A stretch of DNA of 64,000 nucleotides from Candidatus Levybacteria bacterium RIFCSPHIGHO2_01_FULL_36_15b (GCA_001782045.1 MFNK01000009.1:7516-71515); one strand, 5' to 3'; shown: positions 5,340 to 36,430, counted from the first letter of the stretch. The notes: generated by a model from the letters alone, not told the origin. A program made the numbers and translations.

Positions 5340-6071
5340 ATGCATGATTTAACAGCAAGGCAGGTTGAGATCTTAAAAAGCTTAATAGAGGAATACATAG
5401 AAACAGCAGAGCCAGTTGGTTCTGAGACTTTGGAGAAAAAGCATAATTTAAGCGCATCTCCGGCAACAATAAGAAATGAAATGGTGCGCTTGACAGAGTT
5501 GGGATATTTAAAAAAACCGCATATTTCGGCAGGAAGAATTCCAACTCCGGAAGGAATGAAGTTCTATGTAAAGCAGCTGATGAAGGAAAAAGAACTTTCA
5601 GTTGCAGAAGAAGTTTCATTAAAAGAAAAAGTATGGGATTTAAGAGAAAAGGAAAAAGATTTTTTAAGAGAGCTTACTAAAGCTTTAGCGGAAAGAACTA
5701 ATGCATTGGCTGTTACAACGACAAACGACGGAGATTTATTTTGTGCAGGATATGCAAATTTATTAGATTCACCGGAGTTTTTCGATATTGATGTAACTAA
5801 AAATTTACTTTCTGCAATTGATGAAATAAATTATTTTCAAGGTTTGTTTGAAGGACAAGAGGACGATGACGATACACATATATTACTTGGAGAAGAACTT
5901 GGTCCTAAATTAAACGGACCGTACGGTTTTGTTTACAGAAAGTATACAACTCCGGCAAGATTAAAAGGAGAAGTTGGAGTATTAGGTCCGGCGAGGCTAA
6001 ATTACAATCTTGTTGTCCCAACGGTTAGATATTTCGGAAATTTAATAGAGGAAATAGCAAAAGGCTGGTAA
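5340..6071 (+). CDS. hrcA: heat-inducible transcription repressor HrcA (short, ~243 aa)
   Basis: N-terminal wHTH (LTARQVEILKSLIEEYIETAEPVGSETL...SPATIRNEMVRLTELGYL) aligns with HrcA N-termini. The ORF track starts at a TTG (5328); ATG 5340 (MHDLTARQ) fits HrcA N-termini better. Confidence 0.8.
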   Translation: MHDLTARQVEILKSLIEEYIETAEPVGSETLEKKHNLSASPATIRNEMVRLTELGYLKKPHISAGRIPTPEGMKFYVKQLMKEKELSVAEEVSLKEKVWDLREKEKDFLRELTKALAERTNALAVTTTNDGDLFCAGYANLLDSPEFFDIDVTKNLLSAIDEINYFQGLFEGQEDDDDTHILLGEELGPKLNGPYGFVYRKYTTPARLKGEVGVLGPARLNYNLVVPTVRYFGNLIEEIAKGW

Positions 6072-6512
6072 ATGTTCGCAATGAAAAAAAAACATGAAGA
6101 TAAAAATGAAAATCATAGACAGAACCTTGAAAACCAACTAAAAAGAGCGGTAGCGGACTATCAGAATCTTGAAAAAAGGATAGCTATGGAAAAGGCGGAT
6201 TGGATAAGGCTATCTAACAAAGATTTACTTTTAAGACTGCTGCCTGGTCTTGACAGTTTAATTTTGGCACAAAAACATACTCAAGATGAAGGAGTAAAAA
6301 TTGCCATAAAGCATTTTTTAGAAATTCTTGAGCAAGAGGGAGTCAAAAAAATAGAAACAGAAGGAAAGGATTTTGACCCTAATCTGATGGAAGTAGTAGC
6401 AACGCGAGAAGGAGATGCAGGAAAAGTGCTAGAAGAAACAAGAACGGGATATGCGCTGGGTGATAAAGTATTAAGACCCGCTCAAGTAATAGTTGGGGGG
6501 CAAGAAAATTAA
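6072..6512 (+). CDS. grpE: nucleotide exchange factor GrpE
   Basis: 146 aa; coiled-coil N-terminus and GrpE C-terminal region; sits between hrcA and dnaK. Confidence 0.8.
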
Positions 6513-6514
6513 AT

Positions 6515-8422
6515 ATGGGAAAAATAATAGGAATTGATTTAGGTACAACGAATTCGGCTGTAGCCGTAATGGAAGGCGGAAGTCCGAAAATTATACATTC
6601 TGCAGAAGGAAGGAATGTTATTCCCTCTGTGGTTGACCCTGTATCTCATATAGTGGGCGATGTCGCAAAAAGACAGATGGTTTTAAAACCCAAGACCACA
6701 ATTTTTTCGATAAAAAGATTAATGGGAAAGAAATTTACCGACGAGTCAGTGCAATTTGATATGAAGTGGCTTCCATATACGATAAAAAGCGGCCGAGACG
6801 GGATGGCAGTAGTTGAGGTAGAAGGAAGAACTTTCACACCTCAGGAAATTTCTGCGAAAATTTTGCAAAAGATTAAAGCCGATGCTGAAGCCTATCTAGG
6901 AAGCAAGGTATCGCAAGCAGTTATAACGGTACCTGCATATTTTGACGATAGTCAGAGACAGGCAACAAAACAAGCAGGAGAAATAGCAGGACTTGAAGTA
7001 CTTAGGATCATAAATGAACCCACTGCAGCTTCACTAGCTTATGGATTGGACAAGAAAAATGCTCATACAATTGCAGTCTACGATTTAGGCGGAGGGACTT
7101 TTGACATTTCTATTCTTGAACTTGGAGAAGGAGTTTACGAAGTAAAATCTACGAATGGCGATACTCATTTAGGAGGAGACGATTTTGATCAGGTAATTGT
7201 AGATTACCTTGCTGAGGAATTTAAAAAAGAAAACGGAGTTGATTTAAAAAAAGACCCGCAAGCACTGCAAAGATTAAGAGAATCTGCAGAAAAAGCAAAA
7301 ATTGAGCTTTCAAGTTCAGCTGAAGCACAAATTAATCAGCCATTTATAACACAAGGAAGTGCCGGACCGCTTCATTTAACAGTTACATTAACAAGAGCAA
7401 AGCTAGAGCAGATAGTTGATCCGCTTATTCAAAAATCCATAAAGCCTGTTGAGCTTGCCTTAAAAGATGCCAAAGTTAAGGTAACAGACATAGATGAAAT
7501 AGTTTTAGTGGGTGGAATGACTAGAATGCCAAAAGTAGTTGAAGCTGTAACTAAGTTTTTCGGAAAAGAGCCAAACAAAAGTGTCAATCCCGATGAAGTT
7601 GTAGCTGTAGGAGCCGCAGTACAGGCAGGAGTTTTAGGTGGAGAGGTAAAAGACGTGTTGCTTTTAGACGTTACGCCTCTTACCCTTGGAATCGAAACTT
7701 TGGGAGCCGTATCAACACCATTAATCGAGCGAAATACAACAATACCTTCTTCTAAATCTCAAGTTTTCTCGACTGCGGCAGACAATCAAACCCAAGTTGA
7801 AATAAATGTTTTACAGGGAGAGCGTCCAATGGCAGCAGATAATAAATCATTAGGAAGATTTATATTAGATGGAATTCCGCCATCTCCTAGAGGAGTTCCT
7901 CAAATAGAAGTTACATTTGATATTGATGCGAATGGAATATTACATGTTAAAGCACAGGATAAGGCTACTGGAAAAGAACAAAGTATTAAAATAGAAGGTT
8001 CAACCGGCCTAACTAAAGAAGAAGTTGAAAAAATGACCAAAGAGGCCGAAGCTCATGCGACAGAGGATGCAGAAAAAAAATCAAAAGTTGAGGCAAGAAA
8101 TCAGGCAGACTCTTTGATATTTACAGCCGAAAAAACACTAAAAGACGCAGGAGACAAAGTTGCAGAAGATAGCAAAAAAGAAATAGAAGAAAAAATTGCA
8201 GCCTTAAAGGGAATATTAGATAGCGGATCGAAGGAGGATTTGGAGATTAAATCAAAAGAACTTTCAGACGCTTTGCAAAAAGTTGGAGAAGCTATGTATA
8301 AAAAGCAAGAAGATCAAGCACAACAGCCTCAAGCAGAAGAGACTCAAGGTGAACCAGGTGCGGAAGAACAGCCTCAAAAAGACAAAAAGGACGAGCCGGT
8401 AGAGGGTGAAGTTGTTAACTAA
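6515..8422 (+). CDS. dnaK: molecular chaperone DnaK (Hsp70)
   Basis: Hsp70 signatures ([26 protein letters not shown]). 635 aa with acidic C-terminus. Confidence 0.95.
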
Positions 8423-8486
8423 TTTTAAAGGAAAATATTTAAAAACAAGCGCGGATAACGCGCTTTTATAATATAATAGAGAAATT

Positions 8487-9371
8487 ATGGCAGCAAAAGA
8501 TTACTATTCAATTCTAGGAATTTCTAAAAATGCCACAGAAACTGAAATAAAAAAAGCTTATAGAAAGCTTGCGTTAGAATATCATCCGGATAGAAATAAA
8601 AGCAAAGAAGCCGAGGGTAAGTTTAAGGAGATAACAAAAGCGTACGAAGTTTTGTCCGACTCTCAAAAAAGAAAAACCTACGACCAGTTTGGAGAGGCAG
8701 CTTTTGAGCAAGGAGGACCAGGAGCAGGGGGTCCGTTTGGTGGGTTCGGTGGATTTTCGGGGCAACAGGGTCCATTCACTTATACATATACAACATCAGG
8801 GGATGGAGCCGGTTTTGATTTCGGAGGTTTTTCCGACCCTTTTGAAATTTTTGAACAATTTTTCGGAGGGGCAAATCCTTTCGGGCAAAGAGCGCAACAG
8901 AGACCCGTATACTCGCTCAATATTTCCTTTATGGAAGCAGTAAAGGGAACGACAAAAAGAGTAAATATGGGGGGAAGAACTCAAACCATAAAAATTCCCG
9001 CAGGTGTTGACACCGGATCAAGAATTAGATTTGGAGACTCAGATATAATTATGGAGGTTGAGCCGCACTCCAAATTTAAAAGGCAGGGATACGATGTAGT
9101 TTCGGAAGAAGATCTTTCTTTTCCTAAAGCTGCTTTGGGAACAAATTTAGATGTAGAAACTATAGAAGGAAATGTAAAAATTAAAATTCCTGCCGGCACA
9201 CAACCGGATACGCTTATTAGGCTTCGAGGAAAAGGCGTTTCACATCTTGCAGGAAGCGGAAAAGGCGATCATTATGTAAGAATCAGGATCCTAATTCCCA
9301 AAAATTTAACCTCCAAACAGAAAGAATTACTTAAAGAATTCGATGGCGAGAAAAAATCAGGCTGGTTTTAA
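8487..9371 (+). CDS. dnaJ: DnaJ-family co-chaperone lacking the Cys-rich zinc-finger domain (CbpA/type II-like)
   Basis: J domain with HPD motif (YHPDRN), G/F-rich linker, C-terminal substrate-binding domains. No CxxCxGxG repeats. Confidence 0.75.
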
Positions 9372-9430: not shown

Positions 9431-12142
9431 ATGAAAGAAAAACAACAGGAATCAAGATCCTTATCGAAAAGTGTTCAGGGATATCTTACTGATTCAGAAA
9501 GAACGGTTTTAAGACCACACCAACTTACCGTTTTTGAAGATATACGAAAATTTTTTGAGGAGGGAAACAAAAGAGGATATGTTAGCTTACCTACTGGAAC
9601 AGGAAAGACTGTTCTTTTTGTGGAACTATCTAAAGCTTTATTAGACGTCCAGCCAGAACAAAAAAAACCAAAAATATTAGTCGTAACTCCATCTAAGGAT
9701 TTGGTTCATCAAACAATGGGCAAAAGTGGAGAAAGAGGATATGGTAAATTTGCCCCGGAATTAGGCGTTGGATCATATTTCAGTGATACTCCTAGCTCAG
9801 AAAAAACAGAAGCAGGTTTTTTAGACAATGACGTAGTAATTACTACTTATGATTCTTTTGCAATCTTAACTAATGCAACTGAATATGAATATACCCCAAT
9901 TGAACATGTAAAAATACCTCGCGTAAAAATACCTCGCGTAAAAATAGAACACATAGAAATACCAGAAGAAGATTTAAAAAATCATGGTAAAGGACAATTT
10001 AGTGATGGGGTAATAAATTCTGAAATCTATAAAAGAATGGTAGAGGTATTTGGAGAGGAAGGAACAATAAAAGCAGTTTCCAAATGGAAAGAATACCCGG
10101 TTCTTAACCAAGAACTATTCGAAACAGAATACTATAAAAGAATATTAGCCCTTTATGGAGAGAAAGAAGCATTAAAAAGAATTAAAATCTGGCAATCATA
10201 TCCAAAGGGAGATGATTTCTTAAATTCAACAATCTTTAAAAAAATAGAGGCTCTTTATGGAGAGAAAGAAGCCTTGAAAATTATTAAACAGTGGCAGTCC
10301 TACCCCATTGTTGATGAAAAACTATTTGAATCCAAATTTTATAAGAAAACAGTTGAGTTCATTGGGGTAGAGAAAGCAAGGAAAACAATTTCGAGCTTGG
10401 AGAAATATCCCCTATCTGCGAAAAAATTATTTGAATCAGACTTTTACAAAAGAATAGTTTCTCTTTTTGGAAAAAAAGGAGCCCTTGAAATGATTAGGCA
10501 ATGGCAATCTTTGGTAAATATTGAGCAAGTAATATTTGAACCCGAGTTCCACAAAAAAACAATTTCATTTATTGCTGAAAAAGAAGCTCTAAATAAATTG
10601 AGATTTTGGAGATCTTACCCAATAATTAATGATTTGCTTGAATCCGATACTTATAAGAAATGGTTAATTTTCTATGGGGAGAAAGATTTGATGAAATCAG
10701 TTAGGACAAAAAAATCGTTTCCTGTAATAACAGATAGGAAACTAATCGATAATTTCGACATTTTTGTTTTGGATGAAGCGCATCATGTTTTTGGTCAGGC
10801 AATAGCAGATTTGGTACAAAGCATCCCAGAAGACAAGTTAGTAATTGGTTTTACAGCAACTCCCGAAGCAAACAGGTTTAAAAAATTACAGAAATATCTT
10901 CCGTATGAAATCCATAATTTAGGAATAACAGAGGCAATAAGCCTAGATCTACTGGCGCCAATGTTACCAGTAGCGTTAAAAAGTGGGCTAAGAATAGATG
11001 GATCCGATATTTACGATGAGAGAGGTGAATACATAGATACCAAAATCTCATATTTAGCTCATGATGAAAAAAGAAACAAAATAGTGGTAGAGGCTACTAA
11101 GGCCATGTCGTCTTTGGGTAAGGGAATAATAATATCTTGCATTGCAGGGGGAGAAGCATGGCATGCAAAATATTTAGCAGAAAAGCTGAAAGAAGAAGGT
11201 ATAAAAGCGGAGGCTATTTATTCAGAAGTTCCGGCTAAAACCAGACAAGAAATATACGACAAATTTAATAGAGGAGAAATAAATGCTCTAACATTTATAG
11301 GAGTAATTGGTGAGGGATGGGATAGTGAAAGAGCAAAAGTAATTATAAATGCAAGGCCCACAAGATCTGATATTTTTGCAAAGCAGAGACTGGGAAGAAT
11401 AACAAGGCGCAATGGAGAATTGGCAGTAGCAATAGATATTCAAGATGATTTTGACCCTAAAAATCCTCCGGTAACAGTTGCAGACGCATTAGAGGTAGGA
11501 AAAGTGAGTTTTGGGACAATTATTGGGACAAACACAGATGTAAAAGAAGGGGAGATTTTGTCTTTACTTAAAAATAATACTCCGATTGAAGAGCAAGTTA
11601 AAGCTCCTTTTTCAGAATTCAAAAACCAGCTAGCAACGCTTCCTCAGTTAAAAAGAGGTTTTGTTTTGTCAGAAAGAGGCTTCCCAGAATATGCAATTGC
11701 TACAAGAGTAAACGGCCAGTATAGAGGCTTGACCACTGAATTTTTAGATAAAGTAGGAGAAGTAAATAATATTGAGATAAATAAACGAACTGCAGCTATG
11801 GATAGATCAACAAGAGAGGTATACAGTATTGATCAAACCAGAAGACTTTTGGCTTCTCTCCCAAGGGTAGAACCAAGTAAGTACTACATAGATAGTAAAA
11901 ACAACAAATGGATTTCAATAAAAGGCTTACAAGCTCTTTTTAGTCGAAGGTTTACAAATTTAAGTGAGGGACGTTTGGTAAAAATAACAACTGACATTCA
12001 GGATGAATTATCATGGATACCAGCAGTATATGAAATTAATAATCGAGGAAGCAGATTATTTTTTGCAATAAAATTATTCAGTGCCACACCCGAGGCTATC
12101 AGAAAAATAACGGAAGCGATAGAAAAGTCCTATAATAATTGA
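9431..12142 (+). CDS. SF2 DEAH-box helicase (type III restriction res-subunit-like core) with seven tandem ~36-aa repeats inserted in RecA domain 1 and a ~250-aa C-terminal extension
   Basis: Motif I LPTGTGKT, Ia VVTPSKDLVHQT, II VLDEAHHV, III FTATP, V TFIGVIGEGWDSE, VI QRLGRITRR. Seven repeats of the pattern F/Y-YKK-x5-G-x3-A-x3-I-x2-WQSYP fall between motifs Ia and II (nt ~10015-10750). Confidence 0.7.
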   Translation: MKEKQQESRSLSKSVQGYLTDSERTVLRPHQLTVFEDIRKFFEEGNKRGYVSLPTGTGKTVLFVELSKALLDVQPEQKKPKILVVTPSKDLVHQTMGKSGERGYGKFAPELGVGSYFSDTPSSEKTEAGFLDNDVVITTYDSFAILTNATEYEYTPIEHVKIPRVKIPRVKIEHIEIPEEDLKNHGKGQFSDGVINSEIYKRMVEVFGEEGTIKAVSKWKEYPVLNQELFETEYYKRILALYGEKEALKRIKIWQSYPKGDDFLNSTIFKKIEALYGEKEALKIIKQWQSYPIVDEKLFESKFYKKTVEFIGVEKARKTISSLEKYPLSAKKLFESDFYKRIVSLFGKKGALEMIRQWQSLVNIEQVIFEPEFHKKTISFIAEKEALNKLRFWRSYPIINDLLESDTYKKWLIFYGEKDLMKSVRTKKSFPVITDRKLIDNFDIFVLDEAHHVFGQAIADLVQSIPEDKLVIGFTATPEANRFKKLQKYLPYEIHNLGITEAISLDLLAPMLPVALKSGLRIDGSDIYDERGEYIDTKISYLAHDEKRNKIVVEATKAMSSLGKGIIISCIAGGEAWHAKYLAEKLKEEGIKAEAIYSEVPAKTRQEIYDKFNRGEINALTFIGVIGEGWDSERAKVIINARPTRSDIFAKQRLGRITRRNGELAVAIDIQDDFDPKNPPVTVADALEVGKVSFGTIIGTNTDVKEGEILSLLKNNTPIEEQVKAPFSEFKNQLATLPQLKRGFVLSERGFPEYAIATRVNGQYRGLTTEFLDKVGEVNNIEINKRTAAMDRSTREVYSIDQTRRLLASLPRVEPSKYYIDSKNNKWISIKGLQALFSRRFTNLSEGRLVKITTDIQDELSWIPAVYEINNRGSRLFFAIKLFSATPEAIRKITEAIEKSYNN
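9908..9952 (+). repeat. in-frame 15-bp perfect tandem duplication (GTAAAAATACCTCGC x2 plus a diverged third unit), encoding VKIPR-VKIPR-VKIEH
   Basis: Directly visible at 9908-9922 and 9923-9937, then GTAAAAATAGAACAC at 9938-9952. Confidence 0.9.
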
Positions 12143-12177
12143 CATTGTAAAAAATTAATGTATAATACTCTACCTAT

Positions 12178-13902
12178 ATGACGAAAGAAATAGAAAACTT
12201 AAAACAAATGTCAGCTCAGCGAGAGGTTTTTAGCTCTTTGGTTAACAAAAGAGAAAAACAATATAGTATGCTGGGTCAGCAGGTTAATCAAGAAAGTCTT
12301 GAAAAAGCTGTAAAAATAGGCGAAATAATGGATAGAACCCAAGCTCGACAACTGCGCATTGCAGAAAAAGTTGAATTACTTGATCAATCTATTTCCACGG
12401 AGTCAGAAAGAGTAGAAAGCCTTATCCAACGTCTTGAAGAATTGGGTTCAAGAAATCCCGCAATACATTCAGTATACGAAACATTTCGATCAGAATTTGA
12501 AGATTGGAATACTCCTCAAACAGCAAAACCAGAAGAAATAATACCACAACCGGTTGTTGAAGAGATCTCTGTTCCCGCAGTTCCTGAAGTTTCTGCTGGT
12601 TTTGAAGGACAAACAAGAATTGGTGGAAAAAAAGAAATATATGTGCTTCCAAATGGAACAGAACTTAAAACAACGCAAACAAGATTGCGAATTCTTCAAG
12701 CTCTTGAAAAAGGCCCTGCATCCATGGAGGAATTGGAGGAAGTTACGGGGAAAAATGCAGGATGGGTTTCTTCGACTATACATCAATTAGATAATCAACT
12801 GCAGCAATACAATTATAGAATACGTAATCTTAGCAGCGCAAAACAATTCGGCGCGAGGTATGTTCGGCAGTACGAGGGTGAAGAAGATATCACTCAAGGC
12901 GTGCAAGAGCATAGCGAAAAAGATTTAACAGAAGATAGCCATGCTGAGCAGGAGACTGAAGCGTCACTTGAATCAGGAGCTTTGCAAATTCCTCAGATTC
13001 CGGTGTTGAGACATATTGAATCTGCAAATCCACACAAATATGACGAAACTATTACCGTAAAATATGCCTTGGGACAAATTGAAAGCATAGCTCCTAATGA
13101 AAGAACAGAAGAAGAACAACAGCTAGTCAAAGATGCTGAATATCTAAAAAAATATACGCCATCAATCCGTTATCAGTCAATTTATACACAGGAGGAGATA
13201 CACGGTTTAGTCTTAAAATTAAAAACCCTGGAAGGTAAAAAAAGAGAAGATTTTGATGATGTAGAAGATAGAATAATAAATCACTTGATACAGATTGAAA
13301 AATCGACTTCTTCAAAATATGAATCTCCTAAAAAATCTACATCATGGGTTACTCTTAAAAATCGTGCATTTAGAGTAAGTAGATATCTCGCTGCAAAATA
13401 TGCACAGCGACAAGAACAAGCTGGTTATTTTATTAATCTGCATGATCCGCATCCAGAAACTCCTCCTCATGATTTATCAGCTATTTTTACTTTTGTTGCA
13501 TATGATCATGCAGTAAATACTATTGGAGCGAGAACTGTAGGCGTGACTGATCAACGATTTGCTAATTTCGAATCAAATTGCGAAGCAATAAATAAATGGT
13601 ATGAAGCTGCAAAACCATTCATTGACAAAATTCCAGGACATCTCAAGTTGCCAACAGGCTATGATGAACATCAGAGACAGGTTGGAGCCAGATGGTTTTT
13701 GTCTGATCTTGTGGCCACCATGAATATTAGGTTAAATGGAAATGGCCATAATAAATTCGAAGGTTTTGAGAAATATTATAGATATGATGTTGCAGGAGCG
13801 ATGGCTTTGCAATACAAAATTAAACATACAGTAGATGAAATAAATGAGATGTTGAAAAACATTACTACAGAAGAAATTGTTCCTCTCGAGCCCAATAGTT
13901 AA
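12178..13902 (+). CDS. hypothetical protein: coiled-coil N-terminus, possible wHTH segment (TRLRILQALEKGPASMEELEEVTG), unknown C-terminal domain
   Basis: 574 aa, no catalytic motif recognised. Follows the helicase after a 35-bp gap. Confidence 0.45.
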   Translation: MTKEIENLKQMSAQREVFSSLVNKREKQYSMLGQQVNQESLEKAVKIGEIMDRTQARQLRIAEKVELLDQSISTESERVESLIQRLEELGSRNPAIHSVYETFRSEFEDWNTPQTAKPEEIIPQPVVEEISVPAVPEVSAGFEGQTRIGGKKEIYVLPNGTELKTTQTRLRILQALEKGPASMEELEEVTGKNAGWVSSTIHQLDNQLQQYNYRIRNLSSAKQFGARYVRQYEGEEDITQGVQEHSEKDLTEDSHAEQETEASLESGALQIPQIPVLRHIESANPHKYDETITVKYALGQIESIAPNERTEEEQQLVKDAEYLKKYTPSIRYQSIYTQEEIHGLVLKLKTLEGKKREDFDDVEDRIINHLIQIEKSTSSKYESPKKSTSWVTLKNRAFRVSRYLAAKYAQRQEQAGYFINLHDPHPETPPHDLSAIFTFVAYDHAVNTIGARTVGVTDQRFANFESNCEAINKWYEAAKPFIDKIPGHLKLPTGYDEHQRQVGARWFLSDLVATMNIRLNGNGHNKFEGFEKYYRYDVAGAMALQYKIKHTVDEINEMLKNITTEEIVPLEPNS

Positions 13903-13945: not shown

Positions 13946-14272
13946 ATGTGGAGACTGCCCATTTATATACTTAAATTTTGGTACCTGGAAGCTCCGTTTT
14001 CGCTTGTAGGTTATTTTTTAAACCTCAACAAATCATTTTTTAATGCATTTTCTATGCTTCTTATGGTTAAAACGTTTTTTAAGCCTTGGAAAAATGAATA
14101 CAGGGAAGGTTTAGTAAAATTCTCCGTATTTATGGGAATTATTTTTAAGACTTTGTTTATTACTGCTGACGTATTTTTATTTGCAGTATTGTTGTTTTTT
14201 GAGCTTACATTCTTTATTGCATTTCTAGTATTTCCTATAGCAATATTTTATTTGCCGTTTATAAAATTATGA
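13946..14272 (+). CDS. hypothetical small membrane protein, translationally coupled (ATGA overlap) to the downstream Clp-like ATPase
   Basis: 108 aa, 3 TM helices. Stop TGA overlaps the ATG of the next gene at 14269-14272. Confidence 0.4.
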   Translation: MWRLPIYILKFWYLEAPFSLVGYFLNLNKSFFNAFSMLLMVKTFFKPWKNEYREGLVKFSVFMGIIFKTLFITADVFLFAVLLFFELTFFIAFLVFPIAIFYLPFIKL

Positions 14273-16635
14273 GAATATTAGCCAAATTTTACCATTGGTA
14301 TACTAATTTATTAACAGAAGTAACAAGAATTTTACTCTTTATTCTTCTTATAGGCTTAGTCGTTTTAAGTTATGTATATAAAATTTACCCGAATATTTTT
14401 ATTACTCTATTTGGGTTATTTATTATGTTTGAAGTCTATTTTTACCAGAAAATTGTAAAACATACTCCAAAGACTACAGTTTCCAACAATACGGGAAGTA
14501 TTTTTGATTCTTTTATAATTGAATCTTTATCTGCCTTTGAGGCAAGTAACAGTTCTGAGCAGATAATTAGATATTTAGTTAAACTTCCTCAAATTAAATT
14601 TATTATTTCTAAGTGTTGCTCCAGTAATAAAAATGTTCCAATTATTCCGGTAGAAAAAGAGGAGTTGGCAAAATCCGCGTTTGAGCTTGCCAAGGTTTTA
14701 AACGCAAAATTTGTTACCACCATAGATATTTTTGGAGCATATTTGAAGCTAATTGAACCTAAAACAAAGTTTTTGTTTAACGAAAAACTAAAACAAGAAG
14801 ATCTGAATAATATTTTGCTTTGGGCATCAAATAATTTCGCAGGAGAAGAAGTAGATAAAAAGGCTCAAATCTCATTTGCAGGGGAAGGTATTGCAGAAGA
14901 CTGGATTTATGGTTGGACACTAGAGACTAAAAAGTACACGGTTGATTTGACAAAAGAATATGTAAATCAAGATGAGCCGGTAGTTAGATTAAACGAATAT
15001 AACCAGTTGACGGAAGCTTTGTATAAGGGATCAAGTGTTGTGTTAGTAGGGGATGTTGGAGCTGGCAAGGATTCAATAGTTAGATTCTTTGCAGTAGAGA
15101 GCTATATGGGAAGATTGTCGGGAAATTTATATCACCAAAGGGTTTATAGACTTATGGTCGATGCTTTAATGGGAGGAGCAAGCCAGCAAGGAGAACTTGA
15201 AGAAAGACTTAACTTAACCATGCAGGAGCTGACTCACAGTGGCAATGTAATAATTTATATTCCTGAATTTCAAAACCTATTGGGAGCACAGTCTTTTAAT
15301 TTAGATATTTCGGGGGCAATTTTGCCTTATCTGCAAAACAAAAATGTTAGAATCATAGCATCCGTTACTCCGAGTGCTTATAAAAAATATGTTGAGCCCA
15401 ATAAGACGCTTCTAGATACTTTAGAGATTATAAATTTCCCGCAAATAACACACGAAGAAATGCTCGATATTCTTTTTGCAAAAGTTTCTGAAATTGAAAT
15501 TCTAAATAACGTCTCATTTTCTTACCGAGCAGTTTTAACAGCAGCTAGATATTCAAAAAATTACTCTAATGAAAGAGTAGAGCCAGGGAGTGCCGTAGTA
15601 TTGCTTGAAGACAGTGCAAATTCGGTTCATATATCCGGAAAACAAATAGTTGAGGAGGAAGATATTCTTTCTCAAGTGAAGAAAAAAGTACATGTTGAAG
15701 TTGGAGAACCAAAGCCAGTTGAGAAGAAGCTCTTATTAAATTTGGAAAATGAAATTCACAAAAGAATTATAAATCAAGCGGAGGCTGTTTCGGCAATTTC
15801 GGAGGCTATTAGAAGATTAAGATCCGGTTTAAAAACCCCTACCAAGCCAATATCATTTCTCTTTTTAGGCCCAACTGGAGTTGGAAAGACAGAAACCGCA
15901 AAAGCTCTTGCAGAGATTTATTTCGAGGGAAAAGAAAGACTAATTAGACTTGATATGAGCGAATTTTCTGGTGTTGATGGAGAGAAAAGACTTTTGGGGG
16001 CACCACCAGGCGAGGGAGACGAAAAAGGACAGCTAACGGAAGCAATTTATGATAGTCCTTACTCACTAGTTTTACTCGATGAATTTGAAAAAGCAGATCA
16101 AACCATTCTGGATTTATTTTTACAAGTATTCGATGACGGAAGACTCACCGATAATAAGGGAAAAACCGTTTCTTTTGCAAATTCAATCATTATTTCAACT
16201 TCAAATGCTGCTTCAGAATTCATCCGAGAACAGATAGCAATGGGGGTAATAGTCGATAAAAATTTTAAGACAAAACTTATTGAATTTCTCGAAACTAAAG
16301 GTGTATTTAAGCCTGAACTATTAAATAGATTTGATGATATTATTGTTTTTAAACCACTTGGAAACCCTGAAATTATACAAATTGTAAAATTGCTTCTTAC
16401 AGATGTTACTAAAAACTTAAAAGAAAAAGATATAAATGTAATGTTTGAAGAACCCGTTATTGAAAAAATAGCAACCGAGGGATTTGATCGGGATTTTGGC
16501 GCAAGGCCACTTAAAAGATACATTCAGGATAATATCGAAGACCTAATCGCCCAAAAAATGTTAAAAGACGAAATAAAAAGAGGAGACAAAATAGTAGTTT
16601 CAGTAAGTCCTGAAGGAAAAATAGTCATAGGTTGA
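14269..16635 (+). CDS. membrane-anchored Clp/Hsp100-type double AAA+ ATPase (ClpC-like) with degenerate D1 and intact D2
   Basis: N-terminal TM helices, then a degenerate Clp_N-like segment (VTTIDIFGAYLKLIE). D1 has Walker A GDVGAGKDS and Walker B IIYIPEF, both non-canonical. D2 has GPTGVGKTETAKALA, LVLLDEFEKA, sensor-2 GARPLKRYIQ. Confidence 0.7.
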   Translation: MRILAKFYHWYTNLLTEVTRILLFILLIGLVVLSYVYKIYPNIFITLFGLFIMFEVYFYQKIVKHTPKTTVSNNTGSIFDSFIIESLSAFEASNSSEQIIRYLVKLPQIKFIISKCCSSNKNVPIIPVEKEELAKSAFELAKVLNAKFVTTIDIFGAYLKLIEPKTKFLFNEKLKQEDLNNILLWASNNFAGEEVDKKAQISFAGEGIAEDWIYGWTLETKKYTVDLTKEYVNQDEPVVRLNEYNQLTEALYKGSSVVLVGDVGAGKDSIVRFFAVESYMGRLSGNLYHQRVYRLMVDALMGGASQQGELEERLNLTMQELTHSGNVIIYIPEFQNLLGAQSFNLDISGAILPYLQNKNVRIIASVTPSAYKKYVEPNKTLLDTLEIINFPQITHEEMLDILFAKVSEIEILNNVSFSYRAVLTAARYSKNYSNERVEPGSAVVLLEDSANSVHISGKQIVEEEDILSQVKKKVHVEVGEPKPVEKKLLLNLENEIHKRIINQAEAVSAISEAIRRLRSGLKTPTKPISFLFLGPTGVGKTETAKALAEIYFEGKERLIRLDMSEFSGVDGEKRLLGAPPGEGDEKGQLTEAIYDSPYSLVLLDEFEKADQTILDLFLQVFDDGRLTDNKGKTVSFANSIIISTSNAASEFIREQIAMGVIVDKNFKTKLIEFLETKGVFKPELLNRFDDIIVFKPLGNPEIIQIVKLLLTDVTKNLKEKDINVMFEEPVIEKIATEGFDRDFGARPLKRYIQDNIEDLIAQKMLKDEIKRGDKIVVSVSPEGKIVIG

Positions 16636-16812
16636 CATATTTGTATTAATTTCTTATATTAAATCTAATATGAATAGCAGAGTTGACGTGTACAATAATT
16701 TCTCCCCACAAAAATCTCTTAGTTAAAACTAGGAGAGCCTCAAGTTTTTAGAAAACAACTAATAAGATTTTTAAGCCTCCTAGATAAATTTTTTTGAAAG
16801 GAGGTGATTAAA

Positions 16813-17298
16813 TTGAGTAAAGAAAGAGCTCTTAAAGGATTACAGAAAGACGACTTATATTACCGGTTCGTAACAAAAGTAATTGGTCTTGATGAATCTG
16901 CTTCAGTAAAAGATGTAGAGATTGCAAGTTCAAAATGGTTTTCTAATGCACTTAGAAATACAGCAATTAAAGCATTGGGTCTTTCTGTATCAGCGACAGA
17001 TGAAGAAATAGATAAGGCTCAAAAAACTCCGGAAGGAGGAAGATTAGTGCGGCGTGCAATGCTTGGAGGAATAACAGATGAAGAACTGACTATTTTTGAA
17101 AGAGATGACCCAATTCCATTTCCCTATTCAAAGTACATACCAAAAGAAAGTATATTTGCAAGCGAGGGAAGAAAAAATAAAAAACGAAAACGAAGAAGAA
17201 GATTACGAAAAAGAAAATGTTCGTCTTGTCGAAATGAATTCAAGAAAACAGGTATAAAGCCGGAAAAGTGCATACACAAAGGAATTAATTTGTCTTGA
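16813..17298 (+). CDS. hypothetical protein with poly-basic C-terminal tail and a possible zinc-ribbon
   Basis: ORF track starts at GTG 16804, inside the aaggagg SD. TTG 16813 has better SD spacing. C-terminus RKNKKRKRRRRLRKRKCSSC...KCIH. Confidence 0.4.
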   Translation: MSKERALKGLQKDDLYYRFVTKVIGLDESASVKDVEIASSKWFSNALRNTAIKALGLSVSATDEEIDKAQKTPEGGRLVRRAMLGGITDEELTIFERDDPIPFPYSKYIPKESIFASEGRKNKKRKRRRRLRKRKCSSCRNEFKKTGIKPEKCIHKGINLS

Positions 17299-24209: not shown

Positions 24210-25265
24210 ATGGATTCTGCCCAAAATATTGATTCAGAGTTAAATAAATTATCAGAGAAGGTTAAAAAAGCATCTCTTCCTCCCGATTTACAAGAAAAGG
24301 TTAATTCTATGTTATCGCTTTTATCTATTAGTTTAAAAACAGGAACAGGTAGTTTTATAAACTATCAAACAACCGAAAATTACTTAAATTGGCTATGTTC
24401 ATTGCCATTCAACCTTGAAACGCAGGACAATTTAGATATCAACAAAGCAAAAGAAATACTAGACAAAAATCATTACGGATTAATGTCCGTAAAAGACACG
24501 ATTATGGAATACTTATCAACCCTAATTTTAAATAAACAAAATAATACAATGGTTAATGCGCCAATTCTTTGTTTGGTAGGATTGGTAGGAACAGGTAAAA
24601 CAACACTTGCGTATTCTATAGCAGAAGCGTTGGGAAGAAGATTTGAAAGAATTCCTTTTGGAGGGTTATCCGATTCTTTGTCTTTAAGAGGACAATCGCG
24701 TGCATTTACTGACGCAGAGCCCGGTCTATTTATTAAGAAAATCGTACATGCCCAAAGCAAAAATTGCGTAATATTACTAGATGAACTTGATAGAATTGCA
24801 GAGCATGCCAGAGCAGATGTTATGGGAGTATTAATTGAAGCACTAGACAATGAGCAAAATAATTCGTTTGTTGATCATTATATAGATTATCCTTTTGATT
24901 TGTCTCATGTTTTATTTATTGCAACAGCAAATAACACGACAAGTCTTTCTACCGCAGTATTGGATAGATTAGAAATTATTCAAATGCCCTCCTACAACGA
25001 TGATGAAAAAAAAGTGATTGGGCAAAAATATTTATTTCCAAAAATTGTTAAAAACGCGGGACTTCTAGACAACCAGGTAATAATAGAAGAAATTTTATGG
25101 CCTACCATTATTAGGCCGCTTGGTTATGATAGCGGTATAAGAAGTTTGGAAAGAAGCCTAGAAAATATTGCAAGAAGAGTTGCGCGTATGATTGTAGAAG
25201 GCAAATTATCTAAAAATTCGCAAGTTAAAATAGATAGTAATAATATAAGAGAGTATTTAAATTAA
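24210..25265 (+). CDS. Lon-derived AAA+ ATPase lacking both the LAN N-domain and the S16 protease domain
   Basis: Aligns with LonA from the pre-AAA long helix (ENYLNWLCSLPF..KAKEILDKNHYGL) through Walker A (GLVGTGKTT), Walker B (VILLDELD), sensor regions. Ends (..NNIREYLN*) exactly at the AAA+/protease boundary. rnj starts 2 nt later. Confidence 0.7.
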   Translation: MDSAQNIDSELNKLSEKVKKASLPPDLQEKVNSMLSLLSISLKTGTGSFINYQTTENYLNWLCSLPFNLETQDNLDINKAKEILDKNHYGLMSVKDTIMEYLSTLILNKQNNTMVNAPILCLVGLVGTGKTTLAYSIAEALGRRFERIPFGGLSDSLSLRGQSRAFTDAEPGLFIKKIVHAQSKNCVILLDELDRIAEHARADVMGVLIEALDNEQNNSFVDHYIDYPFDLSHVLFIATANNTTSLSTAVLDRLEIIQMPSYNDDEKKVIGQKYLFPKIVKNAGLLDNQVIIEEILWPTIIRPLGYDSGIRSLERSLENIARRVARMIVEGKLSKNSQVKIDSNNIREYLN

Positions 25266-34153: not shown

Positions 34154-36430
34154 TTAGTTATTTTGCACATTTATTTCTATGTTGTTTGGATTTTTGGGCA
34201 ATCCAGAATTTAAAAACGGGATTGAGGGATTAAATAAAGTTTCAACTTTTTCAACATTTTGTAAATTATTTAAATAGTTTTGTGCTTTTTGCAAATCCTG
34301 TCCCTGTATTTGTGTTTTAATTTCGTTCAAATCAAGTTTTGGTAATACTTTAACATTTATTGCAAGTTCCGCTACGGTATCTCTGTTCTTTTCTACAGTC
34401 AGTTTTTTTACATCTGTTTTTATAGCGCTTTTTAAAATATTTACTTCTGCACTGTCAAATAGCATCTCTACAAGACTTATCATATCGCTGTTTTCATAAG
34501 CTATGTAATTAAAAGCGACTGTTGCGTTAAGTGTGAGCTTATTAGACTCATCCCCTTCTTTTTTATCGAATTTTTCATCCGATAAATCGGTATCTACAAA
34601 TTGCGGGAGAATAGTTTTTCCTTTTTCTATCTTTCCTGCAATGGCCTCTTTTGCCTTATCCTCAAGTGCCTTAGGAAGGGCAGCTCTTGCTTTTGCCATG
34701 TCATCTTTAGAAACTACATTCACGTTTTTCTTTGTTCCTCCGGAGAATGCGTTGTCATTTTTTGCTCCTATTGCTTTATTGCTTCCAATTGTAAACTTGG
34801 TGTCAGAAGGAAGATTATATTCCGTTCCTATTTTTTCTGCTGTTACTTCTACATTTGCAGTTCCAGGTTTTGTTCCGGAAAAAACATCACCTGATGCGGA
34901 TGCAATTGATATTGTTTTGTCCAGCGTAAACTTAAGTCCATTCGATGAAGTTATTACGGTTCCTTCGTTAAGCTTAATAGGGTCAGTGTCGTTATTAAAA
35001 ACCGTTACCGTTCCTTTTGCGTTTGTTCCCACGTCTTTTTTGCCGACTACATCGATGGTTGTCGATCCGCTTTCCTCAATCGGAACAATGGTTGCTTCAA
35101 TTATATTTTCATCAAGCTTTGTGGAAGAGTTAGGAGAAAAAGTAACTTCAGCGTTTTTAGTTTGTGTTATTGTTTTAACCGTTATGTTAACTTTTGCTTT
35201 TGCCTGAAATAGAAAAATAAAATAAAACAAAATTACTCCAAGAATTACAACACCCGCAATTAGCAGCATCTTTTTATCTCTAATGTTTAAATTTCTTAAA
35301 GAGTCTTTTGCAACTAAGGATCTTGCCTTAGTAAAAGACGTTTTTGCTTTTTCTATAAGCAATACTCCTAAAGCTCCTAAGTTAGATTTTTTTTCTTCTC
35401 TTATTTTTACATCCTCTGGAATTTCTTCACTTACTTCATTCAGATTTTCACTTGGAACACTGTCTTTAGGTTTTTCATATCTTGGTTTATTTTTGGCAAC
35501 GTCGGCATTGCTAAAGCCAAAAAAATCCATAGATCCTTCTTGTCCTACATAATCCAAATCGCCGGTTTCTTTATCTTCCGCTTTAATTTCTTCTGCCACT
35601 TCATTCTTGCTAACATTTTCTTCCTCGCCTTCTTCTCTTTTTTCCATAACAATTTGATTTTCATCAAACTGCAGAGTTGCACCCATTTGAGTAGCAGCAC
35701 CTAAAAGTACAGCTTTTACATCGGCATTAGCAGGTAGCATCATAATTTGGGGAATATGCAAAAAGTTTAAACTCTTACTCCACTGATGATTTAGAAATTC
35801 CTGAGTTAATTCATCTTCGTCTGAATTTAATAAAATTACTCTTGCAGGCATAACCGCAGGTGTTTCTAAGTGTTTAAGAAGTGTATCTACTGTAAAAGAA
35901 GCACCTTCGTGAATTTCGGTTGTTCTTGCCTCCATGATTTTTCCGCTTTTTATGTAATATACGGTTAAATATTTTTTTCCAATTTCGGCAAGTATTGCTG
36001 TTACTGGGGCGCCTTCTTCTTTTTGTAAAAGATTTGTTACGCTTTCGCTAAATGTTAGAAAACCAATTGGATCAAGGGATAATTCTTCTCCTACCTTTTT
36101 TAATTTATCTAAATATTCTTTTTTAATTTTATCAGCCTCTATCCAGTTATCTTTTAAGGCAAGAATTGTTTTATATTTATCAGGAGAAGTGCCTAGGGAA
36201 GTTTCAGCGCCAGATACTGCTTTATCTAATACATTTAAGAATTCCTCAAGCGATGCATCCTCAATTGTATTTGTAAATTCTTCCTCGGATGAACTAATGT
36301 ACTTTAGGTTGCTCCCAGTCTTTTCAAAAATAACGGCCTTTGCCTTCTCGTTTCTTAAAATAAGAGAGAGGTAATATTCTTTATCCTCTTTTTTGCCAAC
36401 GTTGAGCAGATTAGAAATGTTCATATTCAA
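34154..36430 (-). CDS. large bitopic membrane protein: ~390-aa cytoplasmic N-domain (possible FtsA/PilM-like actin fold), one TM, ~340-aa extracytoplasmic beta-rich C-domain
   Basis: TM LLIAGVVILGVILFYFIFLF. N-domain resembles the PilM/FtsA SHS2 pattern only loosely. Stop/start junction with sortase (34153/34154). Confidence 0.45.
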   Translation of the reverse strand: MNMNISNLLNVGKKEDKEYYLSLILRNEKAKAVIFEKTGSNLKYISSSEEEFTNTIEDASLEEFLNVLDKAVSGAETSLGTSPDKYKTILALKDNWIEADKIKKEYLDKLKKVGEELSLDPIGFLTFSESVTNLLQKEEGAPVTAILAEIGKKYLTVYYIKSGKIMEARTTEIHEGASFTVDTLLKHLETPAVMPARVILLNSDEDELTQEFLNHQWSKSLNFLHIPQIMMLPANADVKAVLLGAATQMGATLQFDENQIVMEKREEGEEENVSKNEVAEEIKAEDKETGDLDYVGQEGSMDFFGFSNADVAKNKPRYEKPKDSVPSENLNEVSEEIPEDVKIREEKKSNLGALGVLLIEKAKTSFTKARSLVAKDSLRNLNIRDKKMLLIAGVVILGVILFYFIFLFQAKAKVNITVKTITQTKNAEVTFSPNSSTKLDENIIEATIVPIEESGSTTIDVVGKKDVGTNAKGTVTVFNNDTDPIKLNEGTVITSSNGLKFTLDKTISIASASGDVFSGTKPGTANVEVTAEKIGTEYNLPSDTKFTIGSNKAIGAKNDNAFSGGTKKNVNVVSKDDMAKARAALPKALEDKAKEAIAGKIEKGKTILPQFVDTDLSDEKFDKKEGDESNKLTLNATVAFNYIAYENSDMISLVEMLFDSAEVNILKSAIKTDVKKLTVEKNRDTVAELAINVKVLPKLDLNEIKTQIQGQDLQKAQNYLNNLQNVEKVETLFNPSIPFLNSGLPKNPNNIEINVQNN

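Follow-up and report, generated by a model that had tools for sequence, protein, structure and literature searches.

The locus considered here raises the question of what a Clp/Hsp100 ATPase could be doing at the cytoplasmic membrane when one of its two rings has lost its catalytic residues and its gene is joined to that of a tiny membrane protein. Textbooks describe class I Hsp100 proteins as soluble machines that thread their substrates, and, to our knowledge, FtsH and archaeal LonB are the prokaryotic membrane-anchored AAA+ quality-control machines described so far. [quoted passage not shown] In this study, we analysed a stretch of 64,000 nucleotides from Candidatus Levybacteria bacterium RIFCSPHIGHO2_01_FULL_36_15b (GCA_001782045.1, MFNK01000009.1:7516-71515), hereafter the window, with positions counted from its first letter. 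Two open reading frames (ORFs), which an initial annotation had singled out together with their ATGA overlap, are indeed present on its plus strand, as are all features of the pair given below with coordinates. The first (13946..14272) encodes a 108-aa integral membrane protein, and the second (14269..16635) a 788-aa, membrane-anchored Clp/Hsp100 paralogue recognised from its reading frame, Pfam, NCBIfam, PDB alignment and a structural model. We consider it very probable that the pair has this identity and architecture, namely a Clp/Hsp100 paralogue with a small membrane partner.

The assignment of the 788-aa protein to Clp/Hsp100, as first proposed, is upheld by Pfam, by PDB alignment of both rings and by Foldseek. 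Pfam recognised AAA_lid_9 at residues 395-476, AAA_2 at 527-691 (E 8e-43) and ClpB_D2-small at 697-777 (E 1.5e-23), and the protein shows the layout of the double-ring Clp/Hsp100 class I, with tandem AAA+ modules, an AAA_2-type second ring (D2) and then ClpB_D2-small. The best sequence match was Thermus ClpB (1qvr, E 2e-105); in phmmer against PDB sequences, residues 221-483 and 461-785 align to its residues 154-419 and 521-845, and the ClpA alignment runs as one stretch over residues 215-782. An AlphaFold2 (AF2) monomer model built on 58 family sequences reached a mean predicted local distance difference test score (pLDDT) of 83.5, and its best Foldseek matches were ClpC, ClpC1 and ClpB, with E of about 1e-50 to 1e-39. 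The top NCBIfam models were ClpB, ClpA, ClpK/G and ClpV, all scoring far under their equivalog cut-offs, as with the top match TIGR03346 (ClpB; 421.7 bits against 1232.1) and TIGR02639 (ClpA; 365.9 bits against 993.15). The absence of an M-domain, noted earlier, is borne out by the same alignment, since the match of the first ring (D1) ends at ClpB 419 (query 483) and that of D2 starts at ClpB 521 (query 461), so that about 100 residues are skipped.

The search for full-length homologues gave at least 120, each about 785-800 aa long, with 49-82% identity and 100% query coverage, from sources labelled Levybacteria or Patescibacteria and under the pipeline name "ClpC". An exhaustive HMMER search with residues 1-240 only, against 1.84 billion representatives, gave 94 clusters, of which 33 are full-length proteins with 19-40% identity in that region. 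The motif counts given below refer to the 120 close homologues and the 33 distant full-length representatives, and to 216 sequences for the D1 Walker B and 207 for the D2 loop. Literature searches turned up neither a membrane-anchored Hsp100 nor this ATPase family. The ATPase represents a distinct, so far unnamed Clp/Hsp100 subfamily, now mis-annotated as ClpC, whose architecture is novel and whose partner is obligate.

The feature that sets this subfamily in the membrane is an N-terminal transmembrane (TM) hairpin at residues 14-63 (14308..14457), recognised from AF2 helices, hydropathy and lysine/arginine (K/R) flanks. The model places helices at residues 14-36 and 43-63 with pLDDT of 88-92, and the spans are read as TM1 at about 19-37 and TM2 at about 42-63. 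Over a 19-residue window, the family-averaged hydropathy of the ATPase peaks at 2.41 and 1.74. A short external turn (KIYPN) joins the two helices, and K/R abound in both flanks, with about 3.5 such residues in positions 1-20 and about 2.8 in 61-70. Because of these flanks, the positive-inside rule points to an N-in/C-in topology, which would leave the ATPase in the cytoplasm. We therefore predict with high confidence that such a hairpin anchors the protein in the cytoplasmic membrane, its AAA+ part being cytoplasmic. The two N-terminal TM helices that had been suggested were thus confidently modelled as hydrophobic helices, with flanks that fit the topology. The region is hydrophobic in all 33 distant full-length representatives, and E55 within TM2 is nearly invariant. 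As for the fear that the start codon had been mis-called upstream of the true one, the start stands: more than 150 homologues cover the TM region and conserve it, and M53, itself part of TM2, is followed by no further in-frame methionine until D1 is reached. Since it is conserved across homologues, the hydrophobic region is a genuine part of the protein.

The small partner and the ATPase form a strictly conserved pair. The ATGA overlap (14269..14272), by which the two ORFs have 4 bases in common, implies that the genes would be translationally coupled, and a 4-base overlap recurs in 24 of the 66 species loci scored, the remaining loci mostly having gaps of 1-10 nt. When one genome per GTDB species was scanned, 101 matching stretches were obtained and 80 loci were kept; the N-terminal region of the ATPase lies directly 3' of the small ORF in 78 of them, and the other two end too early to judge, which makes 78 out of 78 species loci with room downstream. 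Six other loci also have the gene pair, of which L001, L002 and L003 are three and the very distant L004, L005/L006 and L007 the remainder, and adjacency is kept even in distant members with 19-30% identity in the N-terminal region. The small protein of this window matches a hypothetical protein of Candidatus Levybacteria bacterium RIFCSPLOWO2_01_FULL_36 with 100% identity, and the ATPase is identical to a protein on an 80-kb contig of the Joint Genome Institute (JGI). Whether the family spans the whole candidate phyla radiation (CPR) had been raised as a question; the survey answered it in the negative, as the record titles of module carriers name Levybacteria/Levyibacteriota, Gottesmanbacteria, Microgenomates and unclassified "Patescibacteria group" metagenome-assembled genomes (MAGs). 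We hold with high confidence that this is a two-gene chromosomal module, vertically inherited in Levybacteria and related Microgenomates of the CPR, and we know of no cultured member of that clade.

Some records that carry the module bear unexpected titles. In GTDB, dozens of species-representative MAGs hold it in Levybacteria-type synteny under the title "MAG TPA_asm: uncultured Gammaproteobacteria bacterium" (L008, L009, L013 and others), and other odd titles include one "Woesearchaeota archaeon", one "Limnocylindrales" and, for one protein entry, "Sulfotelmatobacter". Such titles look like placeholders or mis-assignments, and one "Gammaproteobacteria" record is the same 936-kb contig as L001.

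The partner itself belongs to no known family, having no match in Pfam, NCBIfam or PADLOC, and its 97 homologues, all of about 108-111 aa, are annotated as hypothetical. Its residues 59-106, a stretch of 47 residues (14120..14263), form a hydrophobic helical hairpin by family-averaged hydropathy, with a 19-residue-window peak of 2.85, invariant K68 and E86, and a nearly invariant D75. Ahead of this hairpin is the basic/aromatic motif KTFFKPWKNEYREGLVKFS (residues 42-60; 14069..14125), identified by its invariant positions in the alignment (T43, F45, P47, K49, N50, E51, Y52, R53, G55 and F59). Its invariant stretch can be written as KTFFKPWKNEYREGLV, and about 4.4 K/R occur across residues 41-60; the motif is probably cytoplasmic or interfacial. 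Residues 1-40 are conserved and amphipathic or weakly hydrophobic, with W12 invariant and F11, E15, A16 and P17 nearly so. Hence, of the three TM spans first ascribed to the partner, its membrane character and two firm spans within 59-106 stood, but the third did not, residues 1-40 being only amphipathic or weakly hydrophobic. The gene is also badly handled by gene callers: the JGI calls only 72 aa on this contig, the partner is uncalled in L002 (5668..5997) and in L003 (2188..2514), where a spurious 71-aa minus-strand ORF is called instead, and in L005 (4628..5020) a 66-aa minus-strand call replaces it. Due to this poor gene calling, the family is under-represented in protein databases.

The next question is what is left of the ATPase as an enzyme, and here the two rings differ. 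The D1 AAA+ module (residues ~221-480; 14929..15708), which aligns to ClpB D1 154-419, is dead for hydrolysis by its motifs. Its Walker A reads GDVGAGKDS (15049..15075) where ClpB has GEPGVGKTA, the Thr being replaced by Asp/Glu, and its Walker B reads IIYIPEF (15250..15270) where ClpB has ILFIDEL, the Asp being replaced by Pro; aligned to ClpB, both motifs therefore read as the initial annotation had claimed. G261, G264, G266 and K267 are kept in all 120 homologues, position 268 is E or D in 108 of them, P332 is present in 120/120, and a Walker B with DE was seen in only one of the 216 family sequences. At the arginine-finger position (15409..15426) the protein reads LLDTLE where ClpB has LERRFQ, and across the family the two positions of the pair read D and N/S/V/T. 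Likewise, the D1 pore-1 loop position GGASQQGELE (15172..15201), aligned to ClpB AGAKYRGEFE, is without a tyrosine, KYRG having become SQQG (xxQG in the family), and no aromatic residue occurs there in the 120 close or 33 distant members. A catalytically competent D1 would be recognised by GK[TS], hhhhDE and a trans-acting Arg, and in their places we found GKDS, IYIPEF and DTL for RRF. With both Walker motifs changed and the arginine fingers lost, D1 cannot hydrolyse ATP by the standard mechanism, and, as judged from its sequence, it is hydrolysis-dead across the family. Nucleotide binding may be kept for assembly, as suggested by the preserved Gly-rich loop and Lys and by analogy with the structural rings of other type II AAA+ proteins.

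Within D1, the position that follows the Walker A Lys co-varies with the one that follows the Walker B Pro. KE or KD occurs with PE in 112 sequences, and KT goes with PN, PD or PQ in 22 sequences as against 4 with PE. This co-variation could be phylogenetic structure or could reflect a remodelled nucleotide or metal site. A compensated site, in which GK[E/D]S and IPE amount to a swapped Mg ligand, would be one such case, but the co-occurrence is confounded by phylogeny, and the loss of the arginine fingers argues against activity.

A sceptical reader may ask whether the hairpin and the dead ring are artefacts, a mis-called start having produced false TM helices or sequencing errors a false dead D1. 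The short JGI call for the partner could be taken to point that way. Nevertheless, residues 1-65 of the ATPase and the D1 substitutions are conserved in more than 150 full-length homologues, there is no other methionine between M53 and D1, and residues 1-36 of the partner are conserved, including its invariant W12. Correction of sequencing errors had been named as something that might restore D1; with P332 in 120/120 and GK[E/D]S in 108/120, the substitutions are real. We regard this explanation as effectively excluded, with scarcely any probability left to it.

The second ring presents a different picture. The D2 AAA+ module (residues 527-691; 15847..16341), recognised by the AAA_2 match given above, has an intact ATP site, with Walker A GPTGVGKT (15868-15891), Walker B LVLLDEFEKA (16066-16095), sensor 1 TSN (16198-16206) and the arginine finger R687 in LLNRFD (16318-16335), all invariant in the family alignment and in the distant representatives. 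The ClpB_D2-small region (residues 697-777; 16357..16599) follows with sensor-2 GARPLKR, in which G744, A745, R746 and R750 are invariant. The description of D2 as fully canonical therefore held for Walker A and B, TSN, R687 and GAR, but not for the pore, where GYVGY is replaced by GE-G-D. The D2 pore-1 loop GAPPGEGDEKG (15997..16029) is shortened, acidic and without the GYVG tyrosine when aligned to GAPPGYVGYEEGG, the corresponding loop of ClpB, ClpC and a soluble Levybacterial Clp. Levybacteria keep the loop as G[EQ]G[DS]EKG, and in distant members it is shortened or variable. Among the 207 parsed sequences, G[YFW]xG was found in only three, all reading APPGYVGYEEGGQ, which is the loop of the soluble paralogue. 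These three are most probably soluble paralogues picked up in loci that have one upstream, and, on this reading of the alignment, no true member would keep GYVG. An aromatic pore-1 loop (KYR in D1, GYVG in D2) is thus missing from both rings, and the soluble paralogue retains the D2 GYVG. Because that paralogue keeps GYVG and the replacement loop is conserved in Levybacteria, the loss appears to be a changed mechanism and not decay.

Nor does the ATPase carry a recognisable site for a protease partner, in agreement with the earlier remark that no obvious ClpP-docking loop was present. The equivalent position reads AMGVIVD (16237..16257), at the site of ClpA IGL and ClpC VGF; [LIV]-G-[FL] is not conserved there, and the family reads K-G in 100 of the 120 homologues, with no conservation in distant members. 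The M-G-V of the window was considered as a variant IGL/VGF loop and was rejected, being a one-off against the K-G family consensus.

The soluble Levybacterial Clp mentioned above serves as an internal control and bears on the origin of the family. It was taken from a related Levybacterium (L002:1050..3632, 860 aa), and tblastn against the window gave about 38% identity over ~595 residues, collinear from the second Clp_N repeat into D1. This protein is itself unusual, as it is without an M-domain, has SHRG for KYRG in the D1 pore loop and shows no evident [LIV]-G-[FL] ClpP loop. The M-domain, the D1 pore tyrosine and any obvious ClpP loop are therefore missing from both proteins, and the D1-D2 junction is almost gapless between them (one 6-residue gap); in several genomes the soluble gene adjoins the module, lying just upstream of it in four loci (L002, L027, L054 and L073). 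They differ in that the soluble one retains the D1 Walker A and B, the RRF arginines and the D2 GYVG, and has neither the TM hairpin, the WxYGW linker insertion nor the small partner. The membrane-anchored paralogue probably arose by duplication of this soluble, M-domain-less Clp of the lineage.

Between the hairpin and D1 lies a region of eight helices (residues 78-189; 14500..14835), and its nature was first described as Clp_N-like. Fold comparison favoured this description: the isolated AF2 model of the N-domain had a pLDDT of 90.6, and all of the top 50 Foldseek matches were Clp N-domains (ClpT, ClpD, ClpC, ClpC1, ClpA, Hsp104, ClpV and ClpB), with probability mostly 0.93-1.0, TM-score mostly 0.43-0.60 and weak E-values of 0.05-0.4. 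Sequence comparison did not, as Clp_N (PF02861) gave no Pfam match in the N-domain, and a profile of the domain searched against PDB sequences yielded no Clp_N match. The comparison by hhalign with one soluble Clp N-domain was weak, at 14% probability, with the aligned segment on Clp_N repeat 2. From the modelled structure, we conclude that the N-domain is probably a strongly diverged Clp_N fold.

A family-specific linker, FAGEGIAEDWIYGWTLET (residues 203-220; 14875..14928), joins this domain to D1 and was recognised by its invariant residues (G207, E210, G215, W216 and E219) and by a gap in the paralogue. The soluble protein has a 23-aa gap over residues 192-214, so that FAGEGIAEDWIYGWTLET is the conserved core of an extra segment. 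In the monomer model its pLDDT is low (51-67), and this low confidence, together with the strong conservation, suggests an interface. Given its Trp/Tyr content, the linker could be an interface with the membrane surface or with the partner.

With the parts described, the question turns to the work that they might do together. Aromatic pore loops are conserved in Clp/HSP100 proteins and critical for processive unfolding, and torsins, which are Clp/HSP100-related, are without them, associate with membranes through a hydrophobic N-terminus and need transmembrane cofactors (PMC5425593). By analogy with these proteins, we tentatively favour, at somewhat less than even probability, a D2-driven, torsin-like remodeller that would be independent of ClpP and DnaK and act with the small membrane partner. 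The ATPase would form a Clp-type hexamer, as its relatives do, with the N-domain/D1 face held against the membrane by twelve hairpin helices; this face is placed at the membrane because only about 14 residues join TM2 to the N-domain. The hairpins would pack with the partner helices through intramembrane charges, namely E55 of the ATPase and K68, D75 and E86 of the partner. D1 would be a hydrolysis-dead structural ring, perhaps still binding nucleotide through its invariant GxxGxGK, and D2 would be the sole motor, its ATP cycles being transmitted through D1, the Trp/Tyr-rich linker and the N-domain to the membrane part. Without a docking loop the machine would act independently of ClpP, without an M-domain there would be no ClpB-type hand-over to DnaK, and with the pore-1 tyrosine missing in both rings it would presumably not thread arbitrary polypeptides processively. 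The outcome would be remodelling, assembly or disassembly of a dedicated membrane client or partner complex, and the position beside the dnaK operon fits a membrane proteostasis role.

Several observations weigh against this torsin-like reading. We infer the hexamer, the contact with the partner and the geometry alike. Loss of the tyrosines does not prove loss of translocation, as a specialised substrate could be gripped by the conserved linker or elsewhere in the channel, and in some distant members the D2 loop has a Tyr or Phe slightly further along. The resemblance to torsin is no more than partial, since D2 retains its own arginine finger. Covariation between the partner and residues 1-245 of the ATPase (mutual information with average product correction, 69 pairs) was noisy, with scattered top pairs and a few TM-TM pairs that stayed within the noise, and was not used. 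The synteny with dnaKJ and nusA, described below, may be mere conservation of core gene order. Furthermore, a search of the window for the CIRCE operator (TTAGCACTC-N9-GAGTGCTAA, with at most 3 mismatches) gave 0 matches, so that there is no evidence for HrcA control.

The nearest competitor is the idea with which the initial annotation had ended, that the protein extracts or unfolds substrates by the logic of FtsH and Msp1. Under this explanation, which we consider unlikely though not by a wide measure, a hexamer would pull damaged or mislocalised membrane or membrane-proximal proteins through the D1-to-D2 channel by means of non-canonical loops and release the cargo to cytosolic DnaK/DnaJ or proteases. 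The order of TM anchor, N-domain, D1 and D2 would bring the mouth of the channel to the membrane in the manner of FtsH, the D2 motor is intact, the probable Clp_N fold is a substrate- or adaptor-binding domain in relatives, dnaK-dnaJ lies upstream in about half of the species, and the late aromatic residue of some distant members could serve the same end. However, no member keeps GYVG, the D1 tyrosine is gone too although such loops are critical for processive unfolding in this class (PMC5425593), the Levybacterial D2 loop is acidic (GEGDEKG), and there is no protease-partner loop. The earlier idea is therefore retained as far as the tether, the single active ring in D2 and the D1 face at the membrane are concerned, but it fails at the grip, for want of a pore-1 aromatic. 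Conservation across the family extends to the tether, the single active ring, the coupling to a small membrane partner and the lack of both M-domain and ClpP loop.

The obligate pairing with a small membrane protein, the conserved intramembrane charged residues in both proteins and the coaxial geometry implied by the short segment between TM2 and the N-domain also invite the thought of a channel powered or gated by the AAA+ part, in which the hairpins together with the helices of the partner, no fewer than 24 TM helices in each hexamer, would form a pore coaxial with the ATPase channel and give these episymbiotic bacteria a new device for export or import. Yet the pore itself is without support, no conserved secretion-system genes lie nearby in the window or the related loci, the translocating pore loops are missing, and the geometry comes from a monomer and not from an oligomer model, so that this explanation is quite improbable. 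A broader version, in which six ATPase hairpins and six or more partners would make a membrane ring coaxial with an Hsp100-derived motor that has an acidic D2 loop in place of tyrosine paddles, and hence a new ATP-driven machine of the CPR, seems to us slightly less improbable than that. If true, it would be a bacterial counterpart of torsin/cofactor remodelling or a protein- or solute-conducting device at the host-symbiont interface.

Loss of the pore loops in both rings and of D1 activity could also mean that no mechanical work is done at all, the nucleotide state of D2 merely controlling binding and release of a client or partner, as in an ATP-regulated scaffold, holdase or switch. Plant SMAX1/D53-type proteins are degenerate Clp-like precedents, and SMAX1 appears in the PDB match list (E 1.6e-08). 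On the other hand, the Walker B Glu, sensor 1, arginine finger and sensor 2 of D2 are invariant across deep divergence, which argues for real hydrolysis and inter-subunit coupling; a passive scaffold thus has little likelihood, about as little as the dedicated channel.

By architecture and fold the protein belongs to Clp/Hsp100 class I, but it fits none of the closest known systems in full. ClpB/Hsp104 resembles the ATPase in its two tandem AAA+ modules with ClpB_D2-small, and ClpB is likewise without a ClpP loop, but the present protein has no M-domain (and thus no known DnaK docking site), a dead D1 and neither pore-1 tyrosine, and it has a TM hairpin at its N-terminus and a small membrane protein as obligate partner. 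ClpA/ClpC offers a double ring and an N-domain of the Clp_N fold, which our protein would probably share in diverged form, and ClpA is also without a long M-domain; unlike them, the ATPase is membrane-anchored and is without the conserved [LIV]-G-[FL] loop, D1 activity and pore tyrosines. In FtsH and Msp1/ATAD1, an N-terminal membrane anchor sets the AAA+ entrance at the membrane surface as it would here, but these have a single classic-AAA ring with aromatic pore loops, whereas our protein has two Clp-type rings without pore-1 aromatics. FtsH further has a C-terminal M41 zinc peptidase, whereas Pfam and NCBIfam show no peptidase here and the C-terminus is ClpB_D2-small, and Msp1 stands behind a single N-terminal TM helix and not a hairpin. 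A division of labour between a mainly structural ring and a motor ring is familiar from p97/Cdc48 and NSF, which are alike in having a structural nucleotide-binding ring beside the motor, but they belong to another clade, are soluble and have aromatic pore loops in their motor rings. Torsin with LAP1/LULL1 shares the absence of aromatic pore loops, the hydrophobic N-terminus and the TM partner, a functional resemblance only: torsin is a single AAA+ module, luminal, with an arginine finger supplied by the cofactor, in contrast to the R687 and dead D1 ring seen here, and the 108-aa hairpin partner does not have an AAA-like fold. The Torsin family (PF06309) scored E 0.078 and 13.5 bits against a cut-off of 27, and the two are not orthologous. 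ClpI (PMC10149685), an additional Clp class defined in recent work, was considered and set aside as unrelated, being soluble, with intact motifs and an M-domain.

The window reads, in order, hrcA-grpE-dnaK-dnaJ (5340..9371), a 903-aa helicase, a 574-aa helix-turn-helix (HTH) protein, the module, a 164-aa ORF and nusA-infB ... rpsO-pnp. The usual place of the module is between dnaK-dnaJ and nusA: of 80 species, 39 have dnaJ on the same strand no more than 3.5 kb upstream of it, and 47 have nusA downstream. In some bacteria, such as Thermus, clpB adjoins the dnaK operon, and the module here is likewise beside it. This placement fits duplication of a Clp gene of a chaperone operon and a proteostasis role.

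The helicase and HTH genes just upstream might suggest a mobile or anti-phage defence module made of an AAA+ protein and a membrane effector, all the more as PADLOC matched DolB and PDC-M37B over the D2 region. These matches, however, cover the generic AAA_2 region only, the partner is unmatched, the scan found no partner in viral contigs, and the module keeps a fixed core position (dnaJ ... nusA-infB) in dozens of species, whereas the upstream helicase and 574-aa genes are missing from all 80 related loci. A defence system is therefore effectively excluded as well, its remaining chance being negligible. The two genes themselves (9431..13902, plus strand), between dnaJ and the module, encode a ResIII/DEAD helicase and an HTH-containing protein; the helicase has an internal array of ~40-aa repeats at residues ~200-440 with the motif YGEKEALKxIKxWQSYP, and PADLOC gave weak PbeA and type IV methyl-directed restriction enzyme matches on the pair. 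As they are absent from the related loci, they look like a strain-specific, possibly defence-related insertion in a conserved operon region.

Other features of the window were observed in passing. The 164-aa ORF between the ATPase and nusA (16804..17298, plus strand) starts with GTG (161 aa in the JGI call), and its C-terminus, KKRKRRRRLRKRK, is very basic; neither a family match nor a homologue in the 80 related loci was obtained for it, and a strong sigma-70-like promoter match (11/12) lies just upstream of it at 16632-16660. Between pnp and the RNase J gene is a 351-aa AAA+ protein (24210..25265, plus strand) with a Lon-type lid (PF22667) but with neither the protease nor the N-terminal domain of Lon, a further AAA+ quality-control relative reduced to its core. 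A 758-aa ORF (34154..36430, minus strand) with a weak Baseplate_J-like match (E 1.5e-6) stands beside alaS in housekeeping surroundings.

In summary, this family combines membrane integration, one intact motor ring, lost D1 catalysis, lost pore tyrosines and a tiny conserved membrane partner. Hundreds of database entries that carry the name "ClpC" or "ATP-dependent Clp protease ATP-binding subunit" very probably do not represent partners of ClpP, and CPR proteostasis inventories that count such entries as ClpC/ClpB are wrong for this reason. The family may be a prokaryotic parallel to torsins, whose mechanism remains unsolved, and it offers a natural experiment on the capabilities of an Hsp100 motor without threading paddles.

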